From NCBI RefSeq assembly GCF_003334305.1, contig NZ_QOWS01000007.1: DNA of 64,000 bases. One strand, written 5' to 3'. The translations under genes and the position numbers were made by a program. The DNA comes from Escherichia coli (GTDB taxonomy: Bacteria; Pseudomonadota; Gammaproteobacteria; Enterobacterales; Enterobacteriaceae). Shown here in pieces: positions 28,329 through 57,949 of this stretch. The notes below the pieces were generated by a model that worked only from the letters and a program-made list of their open reading frames with translations, searched no databases and had not been told where the DNA came from. Position 1 is the stretch's first letter, and every line of letters starts with the position of its first letter.

Positions 28329-30344
28329 TCAGTGAAAAAATTGCCATTGCGTTATGCGATCGCGCAGACGCTCAGTGCGAACATCATTAAGTGCGAACAG
28401 CGCCTGCGCGGCCTCTTCCCGCTGACGGACCAGTAACATCTTGCGGCCTGAAAGTTTAAGTGTGGTACATAACTGCGCGTCGCTGACGTTTTTCTGTAAA
28501 CGCCCACGCAGCGCCGGTAATGCCAGTTCACTGGTTTGTAGCAGACGCAATAAGCAACCTAACGATGTTAATAGCGGACGATGAGCGAAAGCAAAACCGG
28601 CCAGTTCAAGCCAGTCGTCGTCAGAAAGGACGGCATCGTTTAGTGGATCAACAGGAAGCGTTTCGCCATTCCACTTTGCGAGAGCTTGCGCATCGCGACG
28701 TAAACGGTAATGCTCACGTTCAGCCAGTTGTTTACCCGCATTACTCATCGGTAACAGCGCCATCGCCGTATAGCAACCGCTGCTGGCTTCACGATGATTA
28801 CCCATCCGCACCAGCACAAAACCGCAGCGGTGCCAGAAACGCCATAACTCCCCGGTGTAACCAAAACTCACCGAAAGATAGTCGAGGTCACGCGTATATT
28901 GCAAAGCACCAGCAATAAGTTGCTGCCCTGTGCCTTCCCGCTGACGCGCCGGATGAACTGCTATCCGGCTGACCCGCCGTCCACGCAATGTCGCTGCCAG
29001 TGGATTGCTACCGTGCGCCGCCAGCGACTGGGCCACCAGATTACCCCGCGGGCGACGAAAACCTGCCCATACCGCCTGACTGAGTTGTTGAGATAATCCC
29101 CCCTCATCCACCAGCCACAGCGCTCCGGCAATCTCGTTTTCGCCAGCCGCCTGTAAAAAATGTTGCCCTGGTGCATCCATCATCCGGCGTAAATCCAGCG
29201 GCGAAGTCCGGTAGTGCGCACCAGACAATAACTGATAAACCTTTAACGGCGTTTCTGGCTCGCTTCGCCATAACGTTTGTTCAAATGCGGAAATGACGAT
29301 ATTGCCTTGTGGTGTATGGGTGAAGTTTTCATCGTCAAAAACCAGTGCCTCACTAACCATTTTTTCCAGCGGGCATCCCTGTGCCCAGCGGATCGGCTGT
29401 TGCAGTTCAAAACGGTGTAAATGCGGAAAGCGAGCGCAAAATTTCAGCAAAAAACCACGTCCGGTGCCTTCGTAGCCCTGCACCGTAGTGGTTAACAACG
29501 TTCGAGGAAAACGCGATACCAGTTGATGCAACAACGGCGCAGGTATGGCTGCGGCTTCGTCGACCACCAGCCAGTCGGCTTGCTCATCGCTGGCTAACAA
29601 GGCATCCGGTGCAATAAAGCGAAACTTCTCGCCCGCAAATTGTGCCAGTACATCCGTTGCCGCTTTTGCGGGCGCGGTGACAATCGCACTGCCCGCAATA
29701 CGAGAAATGAGTTGCCCTGCCAACGCCGACTTACCGCGCCCACGCGCAGCCGTTACCGCTGCCACGCCCGGAGGCATGGTCAGTAGCTGCTGTAAGAGTT
29801 GCTGTTGTTCTGGTTGTGGTGCGCCGGTCGCGGGGTGCCAGTCAGTACGGGGAGTAAAATGCGCCAACGAGAACGGCTGGTTTTGCCGCCAGAGGATAGC
29901 GTCGTTATCCGCCGTAAGTACGCGTTTGAGATGCTGGACAAAATGCGGCGTCGCAATAGGGTCAGGGCAATCACTCCAGCGCAGCGAATCGGCATCAGGT
30001 TGGTTTTCCCACTCTTCCCATACAGGGAGTAACAAAACCAGCCAGCTTCCCGCTTTCAACGTTCCGCTAAGTGCTGCAAAGGCAGCGGCATCAAAGCCGT
30101 GGCGGGCGTCGAATACCGCATGCCGGAACTCGCGCCCAAGTAAAGTTTGTAGCGCCGAGGGTGAACAGTGGTTTTCAGCATCTGGCTGCGGCGAAATCCA
30201 CAGCCAGTCGCCAGGTAAGGCATCACGCAACTTAAGCGCATGATCAAAACACCAACCCTCTTCCCCGCTCAACACCAGCAAGCGGCGGATCCCTTCACGT
30301 TTCATTTGCGCTGTTAATGTGTGAAGCGCAGTCAGTTCAGCCAT
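28329..30344 (-). CDS. tmcA: tRNA(Met) cytidine acetyltransferase TmcA
   Basis: 671-aa ORF with helicase-like P-loop (TAARGRGKSA) and GNAT domain, recognised TmcA/YpfI. Confidence 0.9.
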   Translation of the reverse strand: MAELTALHTLTAQMKREGIRRLLVLSGEEGWCFDHALKLRDALPGDWLWISPQPDAENHCSPSALQTLLGREFRHAVFDARHGFDAAAFAALSGTLKAGSWLVLLLPVWEEWENQPDADSLRWSDCPDPIATPHFVQHLKRVLTADNDAILWRQNQPFSLAHFTPRTDWHPATGAPQPEQQQLLQQLLTMPPGVAAVTAARGRGKSALAGQLISRIAGSAIVTAPAKAATDVLAQFAGEKFRFIAPDALLASDEQADWLVVDEAAAIPAPLLHQLVSRFPRTLLTTTVQGYEGTGRGFLLKFCARFPHLHRFELQQPIRWAQGCPLEKMVSEALVFDDENFTHTPQGNIVISAFEQTLWRSEPETPLKVYQLLSGAHYRTSPLDLRRMMDAPGQHFLQAAGENEIAGALWLVDEGGLSQQLSQAVWAGFRRPRGNLVAQSLAAHGSNPLAATLRGRRVSRIAVHPARQREGTGQQLIAGALQYTRDLDYLSVSFGYTGELWRFWHRCGFVLVRMGNHREASSGCYTAMALLPMSNAGKQLAEREHYRLRRDAQALAKWNGETLPVDPLNDAVLSDDDWLELAGFAFAHRPLLTSLGCLLRLLQTSELALPALRGRLQKNVSDAQLCTTLKLSGRKMLLVRQREEAAQALFALNDVRTERLRDRITQWQFFH

Positions 30345-30358
30345 CCCTGCCCCGGAAG

Positions 30359-31222
30359 TTAAATGCTTTTACCAAAAGTATTGCATTGTGCCGGATCGCC
30401 GCTGTCGAAACCACGTTTAAACCAGCTGTAGCGTTGCTGAGAAGTGCCATGTGTGAAACTATCTGGTACTACTCGCCCCTGACTTTGCTGTTGTAAACGG
30501 TCATCGCCGATGGCCTGCGCCGCGTTCAGCGCCTCTTCCAGATCGCCGGTTTCCAGAACGCCTTGCTGCTGCATGTTATGCCCCCAGACACCGGCAAAAC
30601 AGTCGGCCTGGAGTTCCATACGCACAGATAAGCGGTTCACTTCCGCCTGCGTCGCGTTTTGTTGCAGTTGACGAACTTTCGGCTCGATGCCTAACAGTTT
30701 CTGCACATGATGACCGACTTCATGGGCGATAACGTACCCCTGGGCAAAATCGCCATCCGCGCCAAGTTTGTCTTTCATGTCATCATAGAAGGAGAGATCG
30801 ATATAAACCGTGCCATCCGCCGGGCAATAGAACGGCCCCATTATGGACTGGCCCGCCCCGCATCCGGTACGCGTCATTCCACGGTACATGACCAGCTTCG
30901 GTTGCTGATAGGTCTTACCCATCTTCTCGAACTGTTGTCCCCAGGTGTCTTCCGTGGTTGCCAGAATCACCGAGGTGAATTTTGCGGCTTCGTCTTCATT
31001 AGGGCTAATTGACCGCGTTGATTGCTGTTGGGAAACCGGCTGCCCGGTCATCAACCCGGTTAAATCAACGCCATAGTAGCCTGCAACCAGCACGACTATC
31101 AGTAAAATCAGCCCGCCTTTACCGCTTGGCAGGCGAAAACCGGGACCGCCCATAGACGGACCACCAGAGCTGTTGCGCCTGTCTTCAACATTGTCACTTT
31201 CACGTCGTCCTTGCCAACGCAT
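30359..31222 (-). CDS. ypfJ: Putative zinc metalloprotease YpfJ (HExxH)
   Basis: 287-aa ORF with HEVGHHVQ motif and N-terminal TM segment, recognised YpfJ. Confidence 0.9.
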
Positions 31223-31368
31223 AGATACCTCAACAATATATTCATTATAGAAATGATCGTAGGTGGTTCAGAGGAAGATTACCACAGGAAAGCGGGATGA
31301 AATGGCGGAGGAATTAAGGCTTCATGCCACGTTATATAATTTACGAATGTTAGAAGTAAAAGAGAATG

Positions 31369-31767
31369 TTAGCTCCAATCTTCTAGTCTGATTCCCGCCA
31401 CTCGCTCAAACTCTCGGGTATTGTTGGTAACCACAATCAAACCGCGACTGCGAGCATGTCCCGCTATCATCTGGTCAAAAGGTCCAACAGGCCTTCCCTG
31501 CCGGGCAAGCTCGGCCCTGATTTGCCCGGTATGCGTCGCAGCAGCACTATCATAATCAAGCACTTCCAAACGAGATACGAAACCTTCAATCACCGCCAAA
31601 TTGCGTTCTGGCATCTGACTTTTTTCTGCCCCATAGATAAGCTCCATCAATGTTACAGAACTTATACACATCCGGCCAGAATTCAGGTTAAACCGCTCTC
31701 TGACATGTACTGGTTTATTCTTAATAGTGAAAATACAGATATTGGTATCCAGCATGAATTTCAGCAT
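31369..31767 (-). CDS. vapC: PIN-domain ribonuclease toxin, VapC family (closest recalled relatives Shigella MvpA / Salmonella VapC, which cleave initiator tRNA-fMet)
   Basis: 132-aa ORF beginning MLKFMLDTNICIF with conserved PIN acidic residues; near-identical in my recollection to enterobacterial VapC/MvpA; 1-nt ATGA overlap with the upstream antitoxin ORF. Confidence 0.85.
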   Translation of the reverse strand: MLKFMLDTNICIFTIKNKPVHVRERFNLNSGRMCISSVTLMELIYGAEKSQMPERNLAVIEGFVSRLEVLDYDSAAATHTGQIRAELARQGRPVGPFDQMIAGHARSRGLIVVTNNTREFERVAGIRLEDWS

Positions 31768-31994
31768 CAGAATGATTCCCTTTCCTGCATTGCGGGTTGA
31801 TCACGGATATCCATAAAATCCGCACTCACATTTTCGCCATCAAACCAACTGTCCCAGGACTCACCGGCGGGAGTGATGATTCTTGTACGACCAATCGCAA
31901 TAATTTCTACTTTCTTAACATCCTCTGGCAGAGCGACCGCTTTCGGTAATCTGACGGCCTGACTGCGATTACTTAAAAATACAGTAGTTTCCAT
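31767..31994 (-). CDS. vapB: VapB-type antitoxin (AbrB/SpoVT/MazE swapped-hairpin DNA-binding domain)
   Basis: Track ORF is 88 aa; start chosen at METTVFLSNRSQAVRLPKAV (75 aa), preceded by a G-rich SD; stop overlaps the vapC start. Confidence 0.8.
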   Translation of the reverse strand: METTVFLSNRSQAVRLPKAVALPEDVKKVEIIAIGRTRIITPAGESWDSWFDGENVSADFMDIRDQPAMQERESF

Positions 31995-32060
31995 AGCCCC
32001 CCCTTTTTTGGGATATACGTCATGTATATACATATTGGCCTGTTATTACTTTCCTGTCAA
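31995..32060 (-). promoter_or_regulatory. Putative vapBC promoter/operator
   Basis: On the minus strand ttgaca (-35-like) precedes a 12-bp perfect palindrome atgtatatacat and tatac direct repeats directly upstream of the vapB start. Confidence 0.4.
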
Positions 32061-32148
32061 AGGGAGATAATGCGAAGTATTGTAGCGGGGGTATCGAAGA
32101 CATTTAGCCGGAGTACCCTCCGGCTAAATAAACAAGCAACCAGAAAAA

Positions 32149-32871
32149 TCAGTCCAGCTGTACACCCAGGCGGCGGGCGACGGCTTCATAGGCCTCGATC
32201 AGGCCACCGAGGCTCTGGCGGAAACGGTCTTTGTCCATTTTCTCCAGTGTTTCTTTGTCCCACAGGCGGCTGCCGTCCGGGGAGAACTCATCGCCCAGTA
32301 CCACTTCACCTTTGTACAGACCAAACTCCAGCTTGAAGTCGACCAGAATCAGACCAGCATCATCGAACAGTTTTTTCAGCACGTCGTTCGCTTTGTAGGT
32401 CAGCTCTTTCATACGCGCCAGGTTCTCTTTGCTCACCCAGCCAAAGGTTTCGCAGTAAGATTCGTTGACCATCGGATCGTGCATGGCGTCGTTTTTCAGG
32501 AACAGATCGAACAGCGGCGGGTTCAGCTCAATACCTTCTTCGATTCCAAGACGTTTCACCAGAGAGCCAGCAGCACGGTTACGCACGACACACTCAACCG
32601 GCACCATATCCAGCTTTTTCACCAGACATTCGGTATCGGAGAGCAGACGCTCCATTTGAGTCGGGATACCCGCTTCAGCCAGTTTGCTCATAATGAAGTA
32701 GTTGAACTTGTTGTTCACCATACCTTTGCGATCAAACTGCTCAATGCGCGCGCCATCCCCTGCTGACGTATCATTGCGGAATTCGAGCACCAACAGGTCC
32801 GGGTTTTCCGTGCTGTATACGGTTTTCGCTTTACCACGATACAACTCAGCTTGCTTTTGCATCTTTATCAC
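32149..32871 (-). CDS. purC: SAICAR synthetase PurC
   Basis: Track ORF is 240 aa (237-aa PurC if translation begins at the internal [16 protein letters not shown]); recognised PurC. Confidence 0.93.
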
Positions 32872-32913
32872 TCCTGGGTGTGAATTAACGTTTTAAAATC
32901 TTTTGCTGTCTGG

Positions 32914-32970
<57 letters not shown>

Positions 32971-33015
32971 AACAAATTTCGTGCGAATTACCGCTAAAAT
33001 CGCGTTTTCCTGCCG

Positions 33016-33031
33016 ACGCACACGTTTGCGT
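33016..33031. promoter_or_regulatory. PurR operator (PUR box) for purC
   Basis: acgcacacgtttgcgt matches the palindromic PUR-box consensus ACGCAAACGTTTGCGT at 15/16, about 145 bp upstream of the purC start. Confidence 0.5.
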
Positions 33032-33074
33032 ATCATATCAGAAAAAAGGGCCGGATGATTCCAGCCCTGTATTT

Positions 33075-34109
33075 TTACTTGCTAAACGCAGCCTGGAAGA
33101 CAGCTACCAGCGCGTCGTTCTGACTCTGAGTCAGAGTATGACCTTTCGGATCGATGAACTGTAGGCTGCTGCGGTTATCTAAATCGCCAACCTGCAGTTT
33201 ATAGTCACCGGATGCTAGGCCTGGATCGCTCGCGCCCAGTTCCTGCCAGTCGCTGTCAGACAGCGGCTTATAAGTTACGGCCATGTTGCCCTGCGAACGG
33301 GTGCTGTCGGTCACTTTCATGCCCACTTTTTCCAGCGCCGCTGGCAGACGTTGCCAAACCACATTGAACGGCCCGCGTACGACCAGCATTGGTAAACCGG
33401 TGTCATCAGCTGCACTTTGTACGTCCATAGTGGTGGAGGCACGATTTTGCGCAGCGTTCGCGGCGTCAGTGGCAGATTTATCCAGACCGGCGGAAATAAC
33501 GTTCATCATCTCCGTGCTGTAACGCTGCATGGAAGCCGCGTCTGCAACCGGTTTGCCCGCCTGTTCCAGGTTCAGCAGTTTAACCGTAACCGCCTGCTGA
33601 TAACCCTGCGGCTTAACAGAGATTTGATAACGACCACGATACTGCTCGTCTTCGTCCAGACGGTTCCATTGTACCCAATCGGTGGTCAGTGTCTGACCAG
33701 CATCATCACGTTGGGTGATGGTGTAGTTTTTCGCCTGCAGCACGCTAACCACCTGCGGCCACAGAGTATTGCCACGACCATTTTCCACCAGCAATGAAGC
33801 GGTATCGCCCGTGAACTGGGTACGCGCGCCAGAAACCAGTGCCAGCGGCTGGGCTGGTGGACGAATGTCCAGCGCCTTACCGACAGCACCACTACCGTTG
33901 GTCACCGGGATTGCATAATCACCGGAGGTCACCGGCAAAATCATTCCAGCCGGGGCATGAAGCTCCGCAAGCGGTGCCGCTTCCAGGTAGGCTTCATCAC
34001 CACTGACCTGACGCTTATAGCGTGAGTCAGAACTACAGGCAGCGAGTAATAAAACAAGCGAAACACCCGCAACCTTTGCCAGGCGCGACTTTTGAACAGA
34101 GTAAGCCAT
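33075..34109 (-). CDS. bamC: Outer-membrane assembly lipoprotein BamC
   Basis: 344 aa from the second Met; lipobox LLLAAC, recognised BamC/NlpB. Confidence 0.92.
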
Positions 34110-34125
34110 CAAATCTCCCTAAACT

Positions 34126-35004
34126 TTACAGCAAACCGGCATGCTTAAGCGCCGCTCTGACCGTCTCACGACCACTGTCGGTGATTGGTGTCATTGGCAG
34201 GCGCAGCGTATCGGTCGCCACAAGACCCAGTTCCTTACATGCCCATTTCACCGGGATTGGATTGGGTTCGACAAATAGTTTGTTGTGTAATGGCATCAGA
34301 CGCTGATTAATAACGCGTGCCTCGGCAAAATGCCCTTCTGCTGCCAGTTTGCACATCTGGGCCATATCACGCGCTGCGACGTTAGCCGTAACGGAAATAA
34401 CCCCATGACCGCCCAATTGCATGAAGTCCAGCGCGCTCGCATCATCGCCGCTCAGCAGAACAAAATCATCTGAAACCAGCTCTTTGATCTGGTTTACACG
34501 CGTTAAGTTCCCTGTTGCCTCTTTGATTCCGATAATATTTTTTACTTTCGCCAGACGGCCCACCGTTTCCGGGAGCAGATCGCAGCCAGTACGGGACGGC
34601 ACATTATACAGAATTTGCGGCAGGTCAGTATGCTCAGCGATGGCTTTGAAATGCTGATACAAACCTTCTTGCGACGGACGATTGTAGTAAGGGGTTACCG
34701 TCAGGCAGCCGACGATACCACTGTCATTGAAGCGCTGCGTCAGGCTAATGGCTTCCGCAGTAGCGTTAGCGCCGGTCCCGGCAATTACCGGAATGCGCCC
34801 ATCAGCCAGCTCCAGCGTCATCATCACCACATCAGCATGTTCGTCATGATTTAAGGTAGCGGACTCGCCAGTGGTGCCAACAGAAACGATCGCCGAAGTA
34901 CCGCTGGCGACATGATAATCAATCAGTTTTTTCAAGCTAGCCCGACAGACATTACCTTTTTCATCCATCGGAGTAACAATCGCGACAATACTTCCCGTGA
35001 ACAT
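34126..35004 (-). CDS. dapA: 4-hydroxy-tetrahydrodipicolinate synthase DapA
   Basis: Track ORF is 298 aa; start chosen at [17 protein letters not shown] (292 aa). Confidence 0.93.
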
Positions 35005-49896: not shown

Positions 49897-50958
49897 TTAT
49901 TCTTGCGCGATTTGCCCATCGGGCCAGGCGTGGATCACGGCTTTGATCAGCGTCGCCAATGGAATGGCGAAGAATACGCCCCAGAATCCCCACAAACCAC
50001 CGAAGATCACCACCGATAAAATAATCACCAGCGGATGCAGGTTAACCGCTTCGGAGAACAACACCGGTACTAGCAGGTTGCCGTCCAGCGCCTGAATAAT
50101 CAGATACACCGCGAAGCAGCTCCAGAATTCCGTGCCTGCGCCAAACTGGAATAGCGCCACGCCAACCACCGGAATGGTCACCACAAATGCGCCAATGTAC
50201 GGAATAAGAACCGAGAAGCCGACCAGCACCGCCAGCAGCAGCGAATAGTTCAGCCCAAAGAGCAAGAACCCCAGCCAGGTGGCGATCCCCACCACGATCA
50301 TCTCCAGCACTTTGCCGCGGATATAGTTGGTGATTTGTTGATTCATCTCCTTCCACACCTGTCCTGCCAGTCCACGGTTGCGCGGCAGCACCCGACGAAC
50401 GGCGTTCAGCATCTGCTCTTTGTCTTTCAGCAGGAAGAAGACCATCAATGGCACCAGCACCAGATAGACGGCAATGGTCAGCAAACCGACCAGCGAGGCG
50501 AGGGAAATTTTCACCACCGAATCGCCCATGGTCAGCATCCGACTGCGCATATTTTCGGCCATTGCATCAATAATGCCCGCGTCCATTAACGCCGGATAGC
50601 GACGCGGCAACGTGGCGGCAAAGTCAGAAAGCTTATTGAGCATCCCCGGCATATCGCGGATTAAGTAGATGCCCTGTTGCCAGGCGATAGGCAGTACCAC
50701 GAACGCCATCAGTAGCAATATACCGACAAAAACCACCAATACAATCGACGTCGCCCAGCGGCGGGAGCAGCCAATAGATTGCAGGCGCACGGTTGGCCAT
50801 TCCAGCAAATAGGCCAGCACAATAGCCACCAGCAACGGAGCAAGCAGGCCACTAAAGAAAAAGATAATGCCAAATCCGGCAACTAAAATAACCAGCAAGG
50901 CAATCGCTTCCGGGTCGCTAAAACGGCGGCGATACCATTGCATCAACATTTCGAGCAT
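49897..50958 (-). CDS. perM: AI-2E family transporter PerM (YfgO)
   Basis: 353-aa polytopic ORF, recognised PerM. Confidence 0.9.
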   Translation of the reverse strand: MLEMLMQWYRRRFSDPEAIALLVILVAGFGIIFFFSGLLAPLLVAIVLAYLLEWPTVRLQSIGCSRRWATSIVLVVFVGILLLMAFVVLPIAWQQGIYLIRDMPGMLNKLSDFAATLPRRYPALMDAGIIDAMAENMRSRMLTMGDSVVKISLASLVGLLTIAVYLVLVPLMVFFLLKDKEQMLNAVRRVLPRNRGLAGQVWKEMNQQITNYIRGKVLEMIVVGIATWLGFLLFGLNYSLLLAVLVGFSVLIPYIGAFVVTIPVVGVALFQFGAGTEFWSCFAVYLIIQALDGNLLVPVLFSEAVNLHPLVIILSVVIFGGLWGFWGVFFAIPLATLIKAVIHAWPDGQIAQE

Positions 50959-53151: not shown

Positions 53152-53853
53152 CTACAACTTCAGAATTTCTTTCACAAACGGAATGGTCAGCTTACGTTGC
53201 GCGGTAATCGACGCACGATCCAACTGATCCAACGTCATAAATAGCGTGCGCATTTCTCTGTCGAGCCGCTTCAGCAAGAAACGCCCCACATCTTCCGGCA
53301 GTTCAAAACCACGCAAACGCGCGCGTAACTGTAGCGCCTGCAACTTATCTTCATCAGAAAGTGGCTGCAATTTGTAGATCTGCCCCCAGTCGAGTCGCGA
53401 CGCGAGATCCGGTAACCCCAGATTCAACTGCCGCGGTGGACGATCGCCGGTGATCAACAATCGTGTTTTGCCCGATTCCAGAATTCGATTGTAGAGATCG
53501 AAAATCGCCATCTCCCACAACTCATCGCCTGCAATACACTCAATGTTGTCGATACAGACCAGCGACAAATGCTCCATACCGTCGAGCACTTCCGGAACAA
53601 ACCAGGTGCGTTTATCCAGCGGGACATAGCCCACCGCATCGCCACGCTGCGACAATTCCGCGCAAGCCGCGTGCAGCAGATGGCTGCGCCCCGCGCCTTC
53701 GCGTGCCCAGAGATAGATGTAACCGCTATGTTCCTGACGCAGCACGTTTTGCAGCGCAGCCAGTAAAGAGGAGTTATCCCCCGGCCAGAAACTTGCAAAG
53801 GTTTCGTCGTCAGGAAGATAAAGTGGCAAAGAGAGCTGTGCCGGTGTGTTCAG
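53152..53853 (-). CDS. hda: DnaA-inactivating (RIDA) protein Hda, with non-AUG (CTG) start
   Basis: Track ORF is 248 aa from an upstream ATG; functional Hda is reported to begin at a CTG giving [19 protein letters not shown] (233 aa); AAA+ domain. Confidence 0.8.
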
Positions 53854-53947: not shown

Positions 53948-55237
53948 TTATTTGTCTGTTATATCCGCGTCTTCTGCGTCCAGCACCACTTCTTCAGGGC
54001 GCAGCACACTAATCAGTTTGAAGATCAAACTTAAGCCGATACCGACGATGGTCGCCAGCGCCATACCTTTTAACTCCGCCGCGCCGATGTTTACCTTCGC
54101 GCCACTGACGCCGATGATCAAAATCACGGAAGTCAGGATCAGGTTCTGTGCTTTGTTGTAATCCACTTTCGATTCGATCAAAACACGAATACCGGAAGCA
54201 CCGATGACACCATAAAGCAGCAGCGAAACGCCGCCCATCACCGGCAATGGGATCATCTGGATAGCGGCAGCCAGTTTACCGACGCAGGAAAGCAGGATAG
54301 CGAAAATCGCCGCCCCGCCGATAACCCAGGTACTGTAAACACGGGTGATCGCCATCACGCCAATGTTTTCTCCGTAAGTGGTATTTGGCGTGGAGCCAAA
54401 GAAGCCGGAGATCACGGTCGACAGGCCGTTAGCAAACATCGAACGGTGCAGACCTGGATCGCGCAGCAGATCTTTTTTGACGATATTAGCCGTTACTACC
54501 AGGTGCCCTACGTGTTCGGCAATAACCACTAATGCCGCTGGCAGAATAGTCAGAATGGCAAACCACTCGAAGCGCGGCGTATAGAGGGTTGGCAGCGCAA
54601 ACCAGTGAGCATTAATAATCGGCGTGGTATCGACAATTCCCATTGCGAAAGAGAGCGCGTACCCCACCAGCACGCCAATTAAAATCGGGATAATTGCCAG
54701 GAAACCACGGAACAGCACGGAACCTAAAACCGTGACCGCCAGGGTGGTAATAGAGATGATGATGGTTTTGGAGTCTGGCGTTTGCCCTTCAGCCGGGAGT
54801 AAACCCGCCATACCGGCAGCTACGCCCGCCAGCTCCAGACCGATGACGGCAACGATTGCGCCCATTGCCGCAGGTGGAAACAGCACGTCCAGCCAGCCGG
54901 TCCCCGCTTTCTTCACGATAAAAGAAACCAGGCAGAACAGCACGCCGCACATAATAAAGCCGCCCAGCGCGACTTCATACCCCAACGGCAACAGTAACAA
55001 TACCGGTGAAATAAAGGCAAAGCTGGAACCAAGATAAGCCGGAATTTTCCCTTTACAGATGAAGAGATACAGCAGCGTTCCAATACCGTTAAATAACAGT
55101 ACAGTCGCCGGGTTAATATGAAATAAGACGGGCACCAGGACGGTTGCACCAAACATGGCGAACAAATGTTGCAAACTAAGCGGGATTGTCTGTAAAAGTG
55201 GCGGTCTTTCACTCACCCCGATAGCACGGCGCGTCAT
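53948..55237 (-). CDS. uraA: Uracil:proton symporter UraA
   Basis: Track ORF is 443 aa; start chosen at [16 protein letters not shown] (429 aa). Confidence 0.92.
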
Positions 55238-56194: not shown

Positions 56195-56210
56195 TCGCAA
56201 ACGTTTGCTT
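56195..56210. promoter_or_regulatory. PurR operator (PUR box) of purMN
   Basis: tcgcaaacgtttgctt matches the PUR-box consensus at 14/16, about 65 bp upstream of the purM start. Confidence 0.6.
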
Positions 56211-56255
56211 TCCCTGTTAGAATTGCGCCGAATTTTATTTTTCTACCGCAAGTAA

Positions 56256-57310
<1,055 letters not shown>

Positions 57311-57311
<1 letters not shown>

Positions 57312-57949
57312 TGAATATTGTGGTGCTTATTTCCGGCAACGGAAGTAATTTACAGGCAATTATTGACGCCTGTAAAACTAACAAAATTAAAGGCACCGTA
57401 CGGGCAGTTTTCAGCAATAAGGCCGACGCGTTCGGCCTTGAACGCGCCCGCCAGGCGGGTATTGCAACGCATACGCTCATCGCCAGCGCGTTTGACAGTC
57501 GTGAAGCCTATGACCGGGAGTTGATTCATGAAATCGACATGTACGCACCCGATGTGGTCGTGCTGGCTGGTTTTATGCGCATTCTCAGCCCGGCGTTTGT
57601 CTCCCACTATGCCGGGCGTTTGCTGAACATTCACCCTTCTCTGCTGCCGAAATATCCCGGATTACACACCCATCGTCAAGCGCTGGAAAATGGTGATGAA
57701 GAGCACGGTACATCGGTGCATTTCGTCACCGATGAACTGGACGGTGGCCCGGTTATTTTACAGGCGAAAGTCCCGGTATTTGCTGGTGATACGGAAGATG
57801 ACATCACCGCCCGCGTGCAAACCCAGGAACACGCTATTTATCCACTGGTGATTAGCTGGTTTGCCGATGGTCGTCTGAAAATGCACGAAAACGCCGCGTG
57901 GCTGGATGGTCAACGTCTGCCGCCGCAGGGCTACGCTGCCGACGAGTAA
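57311..57949 (+). CDS. purN: Phosphoribosylglycinamide formyltransferase PurN
   Basis: 212-aa ORF, recognised PurN; start overlaps the purM stop. Confidence 0.95.

Follow-up and report, generated by a model that had tools for sequence, protein, structure and literature searches.

The two near-consensus palindromes upstream of purC and purMN in the window, which is the whole 64-kb stretch of Escherichia coli DNA that was analyzed, are almost certainly the canonical, long-known PurR operators of these transcription units and not new members or variants. The sites are present, they agree in every base with the K-12 sites that PurR binds in vivo, and they are conserved. PurR control of purC and purMN is already known. 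The purC and purMN operators of E. coli K-12 are said to have been reported by He, Shiau, Choi, Zalkin and Smith in 1990, by Tiedeman et al. in 1990, and by Smith and Daum in 1986. He et al. reportedly found that each operator is specifically bound by PurR and that coregulation is 5- to 17-fold.

The window belongs to the E. coli chromosome: positions 30300..34200 were 100% identical to strain A7 and had matches in all 5426 complete genomes. According to RefSeq annotation and NCBIfam, the minus strand carries dapA, bamC, purC, vapB, vapC, ypfJ, and tmcA in this order, and the plus strand carries purM and purN, which are divergent from upp. The purC gene (32149..32862, minus strand) encodes SAICAR synthase (RefSeq; NCBIfam TIGR00081, 290 bits). 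The purM gene (56274..57311, plus strand) starts with GTG and is followed by purN (57311..57949, plus strand; both RefSeq and NCBIfam). Since the two genes overlap by one base at position 57311, they were considered a purM-purN operon (56274..57949, plus strand).

Two palindromes in the window match the PurR operator

The purC PUR box is located at 33016..33031 on the minus strand, 154 to 169 nt upstream of the purC ATG, and reads ACGCACACGTTTGCGT as shown and ACGCAAACGTGTGCGT in purC orientation. The purMN PUR box (TCGCAAACGTTTGCTT; 56195..56210, plus strand) lies 64 to 79 nt upstream of the purM GTG start codon. Thus, both are placed at or close to purine gene promoters, the elements of which are predicted ones. 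Compared to the PurR palindrome ACGCAAACGTTTGCGT, the purC box has one mismatch and the purM box has two, and the central CG is intact in both. The preliminary description had counted 15/16 matches on the purC side and 14/16 on the purM side; these counts were correct, and both strings were found at the above coordinates.

When up to two mismatches to ACGCAAACGTTTGCGT were allowed, the two boxes were the sole matches in the 64-kb window. The chance expectation was derived from dinucleotide-preserving shuffles (n = 100), which yielded a mean of 0.05 matches per window at this level and two matches in 0/100 cases. Furthermore, a symmetrized PurR weight matrix was used, which was built from 12 MG1655 PurR motifs located elsewhere in the genome (Cho et al. 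2011, Table 1), with the in-window sites excluded. The purC box reached 19.4 bits and the purM box 16.5 bits, and no other position of the window scored as high as either. Judged by 1000 shuffles, the probability of a best score of at least 19.4 bits was 0.005, and that of a second-best score of at least 16.5 bits was 0.001.

Other PurR-like sequences were also inspected. A third published PurR ChIP-chip motif, that of yfgO/yfgC (now perM/bepA), is present at 50898..50913 on the minus strand (CCGGAAGCGATTGCCT) and matches the listing of Cho et al. 2011 exactly; it was absent from the preliminary description. This motif lies just within the 5' end of the open reading frame 49897..50958 and reached 10.3 bits on the weight matrix. 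It is weak and, judged by its sequence alone, looks like a chance occurrence. At up to three mismatches, one extra match was obtained in the window (0.73 expected by chance). It is located inside hda (53311..53326), has three mismatches and a degenerate right half-site, and was taken as noise. The third-best weight matrix match (ACGGCAACGATTGCGC; 54846..54861, plus strand; 13.8 bits) is located inside uraA. Its score is within the range of the shuffled maxima, and it is probably due to chance.

Both boxes are identical to K-12 sites bound by PurR

Between the bamC stop codon and the purC ATG, the sequence corresponds to that of K-12 DH1 save for one single nucleotide polymorphism (SNP) at position 33014, where K-12 has T instead of G; this position is outside the box, two bases from its edge. 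At purM, the box and the 85 nt that flank it in each direction were the same as in K-12. A comparison of the upp-purM spacer with a strain of the K-12 serotype (O16:H48) revealed 3 differences, all of which lie upstream of the box and more than 40 nt away from it.

In MG1655, ACGCACACGTTTGCGT is the motif of the PurR ChIP-chip peak at purC (2 595 794-2 595 809), and TCGCAAACGTTTGCTT is the motif of the peak at purM-purN (2 619 140-2 619 155) (Cho et al. 2011, PMC3159470, Table 1). The two peaks are among the strongest in that table, their occupancy differs greatly between cultures with and without adenine, and the purC and purMN operons were placed with the genes repressed by PurR-hypoxanthine (PMC3159470). 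The purC promoter is also the worked example of Freddolino et al. 2021, where IPOD-HR detected occupancy of the PurR site in rich medium; this occupancy was lost upon deletion of purR and also in minimal medium (PMC8282354). In summary, the proposal of the preliminary description that both pur transcription units are under PurR control is well supported: the control regions equal those of K-12 across the boxes and promoters, the same 16-mers were bound in ChIP-chip, and the occupancy at purC is purR dependent. No contrary evidence on PurR binding was encountered, and the caveats given below touch the mechanism only.

The boxes are conserved

The conservation of the purC box was analyzed in purC loci that were retrieved through their coding sequence, with YRGKAKTVY as a degenerate pattern and one genome per species (n = 120), a selection that is blind to the operator. 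The upstream DNA was long enough in 118 of these loci, and 48 of the 118 had a box with up to three mismatches no more than 400 nt upstream of the purC start, compared to 18/1939 background windows of 400 nt. All Enterobacteriaceae in the strict sense carried ACGCAAACGTGTGCGT upstream of purC, save for a flipped form in two Enterobacter. Variants with two to four mismatches at a similar distance were found in the Erwinia/Pantoea group, Serratia, the Providencia/Arsenophonus/Morganella group, Edwardsiella, and Hafnia. Among the fetched purC loci, those of Yersinia, Pectobacterium, Photorhabdus, Gilliamella, Alteromonadales, and betaproteobacteria had no recognizable purC box.

The flipped form occurs in Enterobacter sp. 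BIGb0383 and ENT03 (loci L018 and L094), which have ACGCACACGTTTGCGT in purC orientation where the others have ACGCAAACGTGTGCGT. In these two species, the single asymmetric position is in the other half-site, so that a palindrome with one mismatch is retained but flipped.

When the bamC-purC region of 16 Enterobacteriaceae was aligned, the longest invariant stretches were the T run of the bamC terminator, the box (15/16 columns), and the Shine-Dalgarno sequence. Within E. coli, a 36-mer comprising the purC box and the predicted -10 element was found exactly in 5392/5417 records. The corresponding 36-mer of the purM box and its predicted -10, whose conservation was assessed in E. coli, was exact in 5422/5423 records. 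By contrast, the whole upp-purM spacer was at least 99% identical in 1995/5425.

These data bear on the question of whether both palindromes could be chance matches to the consensus that have no regulatory role. Matches of lesser quality do arise by chance, as illustrated by the site with three mismatches in hda (53311; 0.73 expected), and a score of 16.5 bits, taken as that of a single site, was reached in 6.7% of the shuffled windows. However, none of the 100 shuffles contained a pair of matches at the level of two mismatches, both boxes sit in promoter regions of purine genes, and they are kept across genera while their flanks diverge. Most importantly, both are identical to ChIP-chip-bound sites, and this in vivo binding of the identical K-12 sequence refutes the chance explanation, to which we assign a negligible probability. 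We conclude that the two boxes are the purC and purMN operators, which have been characterized since about 1990 and were reconfirmed genome-wide in 2011 and 2021. They are ordinary textbook features. The useful outcome is a negative one, in that there is nothing unusual at the box coordinates, and its import beyond correct annotation is small.

Predicted promoter geometry and proposed mode of repression

A predicted extended -10 element of the purC promoter (TGaTATGAT; 33032..33040, minus strand), read from the sequence, directly adjoins the box. Since the purC box follows immediately after this element, the start site is probably near position 33025, inside the box. Upstream, the intrinsic terminator of bamC (33047..33068, minus strand), a 9-bp stem followed by a T run, ends 6 nt before the predicted purC -10; the position of its stem and the T run are kept across genera. 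At purM, a -10 element (TAGAAT; 56218..56223, plus strand) was likewise predicted by reading the sequence. With a 17-nt spacer, it implies a -35 element (TCGCAA; 56195..56200, plus strand; 3/6 match), which would be inside the left half of the box. The purM start site is predicted near position 56230.

A consensus promoter scan called neither the purC nor the purM promoter, the former because it has no recognizable -35 and the latter because its -35 matches at 3/6 positions. Moreover, in the alignment of 16 Enterobacteriaceae, the TGaTATGAT motif was kept in Escherichia, Citrobacter, and Pseudocitrobacter only. For these reasons, the arrangement at purC, in which the box would overlap the -10 and the start site, is to be taken as a reading of the sequence.

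PurR is a dimeric protein of the LacI family that binds its 16-bp operator only when hypoxanthine or guanine is bound. A functional purR is presumably present in the source strain, as in essentially all E. coli; the gene, which is located about 0.86 Mb away in K-12, is outside the window. When hypoxanthine or guanine builds up, it would act as the corepressor that the PurR dimer takes up before it binds to the imperfect palindrome of 16 bp. At purC, where the box adjoins the predicted extended -10 and covers the probable start site, bound PurR would occlude the -10/+1 region. At purM, the box would cover the putative -35 together with the adjoining part of the spacer. At both promoters, bound PurR should stop RNA polymerase from initiating transcription. 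According to Cho et al. 2011 (PMC3159470), PurR sites are generally located between -35 and -10 and block initiation, and the purB and purR sites are exceptions that block elongation.

The distance between the box and the purC start codon is large in E. coli (154 to 169 nt versus about 65 nt elsewhere) because a REP-type repeat was inserted in the 5' leader. The core of this repeat is at 32928..32969 on the minus strand, and further copies of it occur at other places in E. coli genomes as well as on a plasmid. Approximately 100 nt of extra purC leader (about 32884..32987, minus strand) were present in E. coli and E. albertii and absent from the 14 other aligned Enterobacteriaceae. Rfam, applied at the gathering threshold, found no family anywhere in the 64-kb window, and the long purC 5' untranslated region matches no known leader RNA.

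A vapBC cassette replaces the K-12 sequence downstream of purC

The location of a VapBC cassette directly downstream of purC, as given in the preliminary description, was confirmed by RefSeq and NCBIfam. The antitoxin gene vapB occupies 31767..31994 (minus strand; NCBIfam NF040493, 114 bits, above cutoff), and vapC occupies 31369..31767 (minus strand; NCBIfam NF010285, 291 bits, above cutoff). VapC is a PIN-domain toxin with tRNA(fMet) cleavage by homology. It matches PDB entries 3TND, 6SD6, and 6IFC with E values of 1e-73 to 1e-80 (about 1e-79 for 3TND and 6SD6), and its profile is almost the same as that of the solved tRNA(fMet) endonucleases of Shigella and Salmonella. The locus has the makeup of a type II VapBC module, with a PIN-domain toxin homologous to characterized VapC, a small AbrB-type antitoxin gene preceding it, and one operon in which the two genes overlap at position 31767.

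Alignment with K-12 DH1 revealed that the cassette is a replacement and not a clean insertion. An allele-specific segment of 826 bp (31315..32140, minus strand), which contains a hairpin, the vapBC promoter, vapB, vapC, and a 3' tail, takes the place of 67 bp of K-12. Full-query matches were obtained in 1620/5426 complete genomes, and the others, including K-12 and O157:H7, cover 79% of the query. The vapBC cassette is therefore a common accessory allele on the chromosome, between purC and ypfJ.

For vapBC, a promoter (TTGACA, 17 nt, CAATAT; 32032..32060, minus strand) was predicted by inspection, with its -35 located 89 nt from the purC stop codon; the consensus promoter scan missed it. Its -10 is covered by the palindromic ATATGTATATACAT, which continues just downstream of this element. 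The vapBC promoter of Salmonella is autoregulated, and its operators overlap the -10 and -35 (PMC3378870). The predicted consensus-like promoter with its palindromes fits this autoregulated Salmonella promoter. A run of seven G residues was observed in the ribosome-binding region of vapB (31996..32002, minus strand; AAAAAAGGGGGGGCTATG), and another E. coli copy (L079) has this run too.

The purC-vapBC junction

In K-12, purC is followed by a hairpin with an 11-bp stem, which lies within the 67 bp that are lost from the cassette allele. The cassette allele swaps it for a different, equally strong hairpin with a 13-bp stem (AGCCGGAG...CTCCGGCT; 32101..32130, minus strand), 19 nt past the purC stop codon. 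In neither the K-12 nor the vapBC allele is the hairpin followed by a U tract. Every genus examined had a strong hairpin of its own directly behind the purC stop codon. The hairpin of the vapBC allele was less similar to that of K-12 than to those found behind purC in Pseudescherichia and some Citrobacter (compare L002, 2540..2575), and E. albertii had the K-12 type. This likeness suggests that either the allele came by recombination together with flanking DNA or the K-12 form is derived.

The preliminary description had raised the idea that the cassette affects purC 3'-end formation. As far as the sequence goes, the hairpin swap neither supports nor excludes such an effect. In a broader form, the vapBC allele could materially change purC expression, by way of mRNA 3'-end formation or stability, or could allow PurR-controlled read-through into vapBC. 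Consistent with this, the K-12 hairpin is removed and another one is supplied, neither of the two resembles an efficient intrinsic terminator, as both are without a U tract, and vapBC is on the same strand as purC, its -35 being close to the purC stop codon. However, a strong hairpin at the same place in every genus examined is retained by the cassette allele, so the probable determinant of the purC 3' end is preserved. In addition, vapBC has its own consensus-like predicted promoter, the homologous Salmonella promoter being autoregulated (PMC3378870), and both alleles encode an identical PurC (WP_001295467.1). Further, 30% of genomes have the cassette allele and 70% the other one, a coexistence that suggests no strong cost. 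Taken together, we regard a material influence of the cassette on purC, or PurR-controlled read-through, as unlikely.

For the approximately 30% of E. coli that have vapBC behind purC, it is rather improbable that transcripts from the PurR-controlled promoter read through into vapBC or that the swapped hairpin alters purC mRNA stability. The sequence demands neither read-through nor an altered purC 3' end. If read-through were true, toxin-antitoxin synthesis would hinge partly on the purine status. In the literature, nothing specific was found on the chromosomal purC-vapBC junction. It is a modest side question and not part of the PurR finding, according to which the two boxes are the known operators.

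Relation to known systems

The cassette resembles the enteric VapBC/MvpAT systems of Shigella pMYSH6000 and Salmonella LT2, with which it has in common a VapC close to solved tRNA(fMet) endonucleases, the vapB-vapC order, the one-base overlap, and the promoter palindromes. It differs from plasmid-borne vapBC copies, whose DNA is about 77% identical to that of the chromosomal cassette. The homology to these copies does not extend upstream beyond the -10 of the vapBC promoter, and therefore, the hairpin behind purC is not part of the plasmid-type module.

The purC and purMN boxes correspond to the K-12 purC and purMN PurR operators in their 16-mers, their positions, and the flanking promoter sequences, the sole difference being the SNP at 33014. 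They share the repressor and the 16-bp motif family with the operators of purB and purR. In contrast to the purC and purMN boxes, which are at promoters, the purB and purR sites are of the roadblock type: they lie beyond the transcription start, and a block of elongation has been described for them (PMC3159470).
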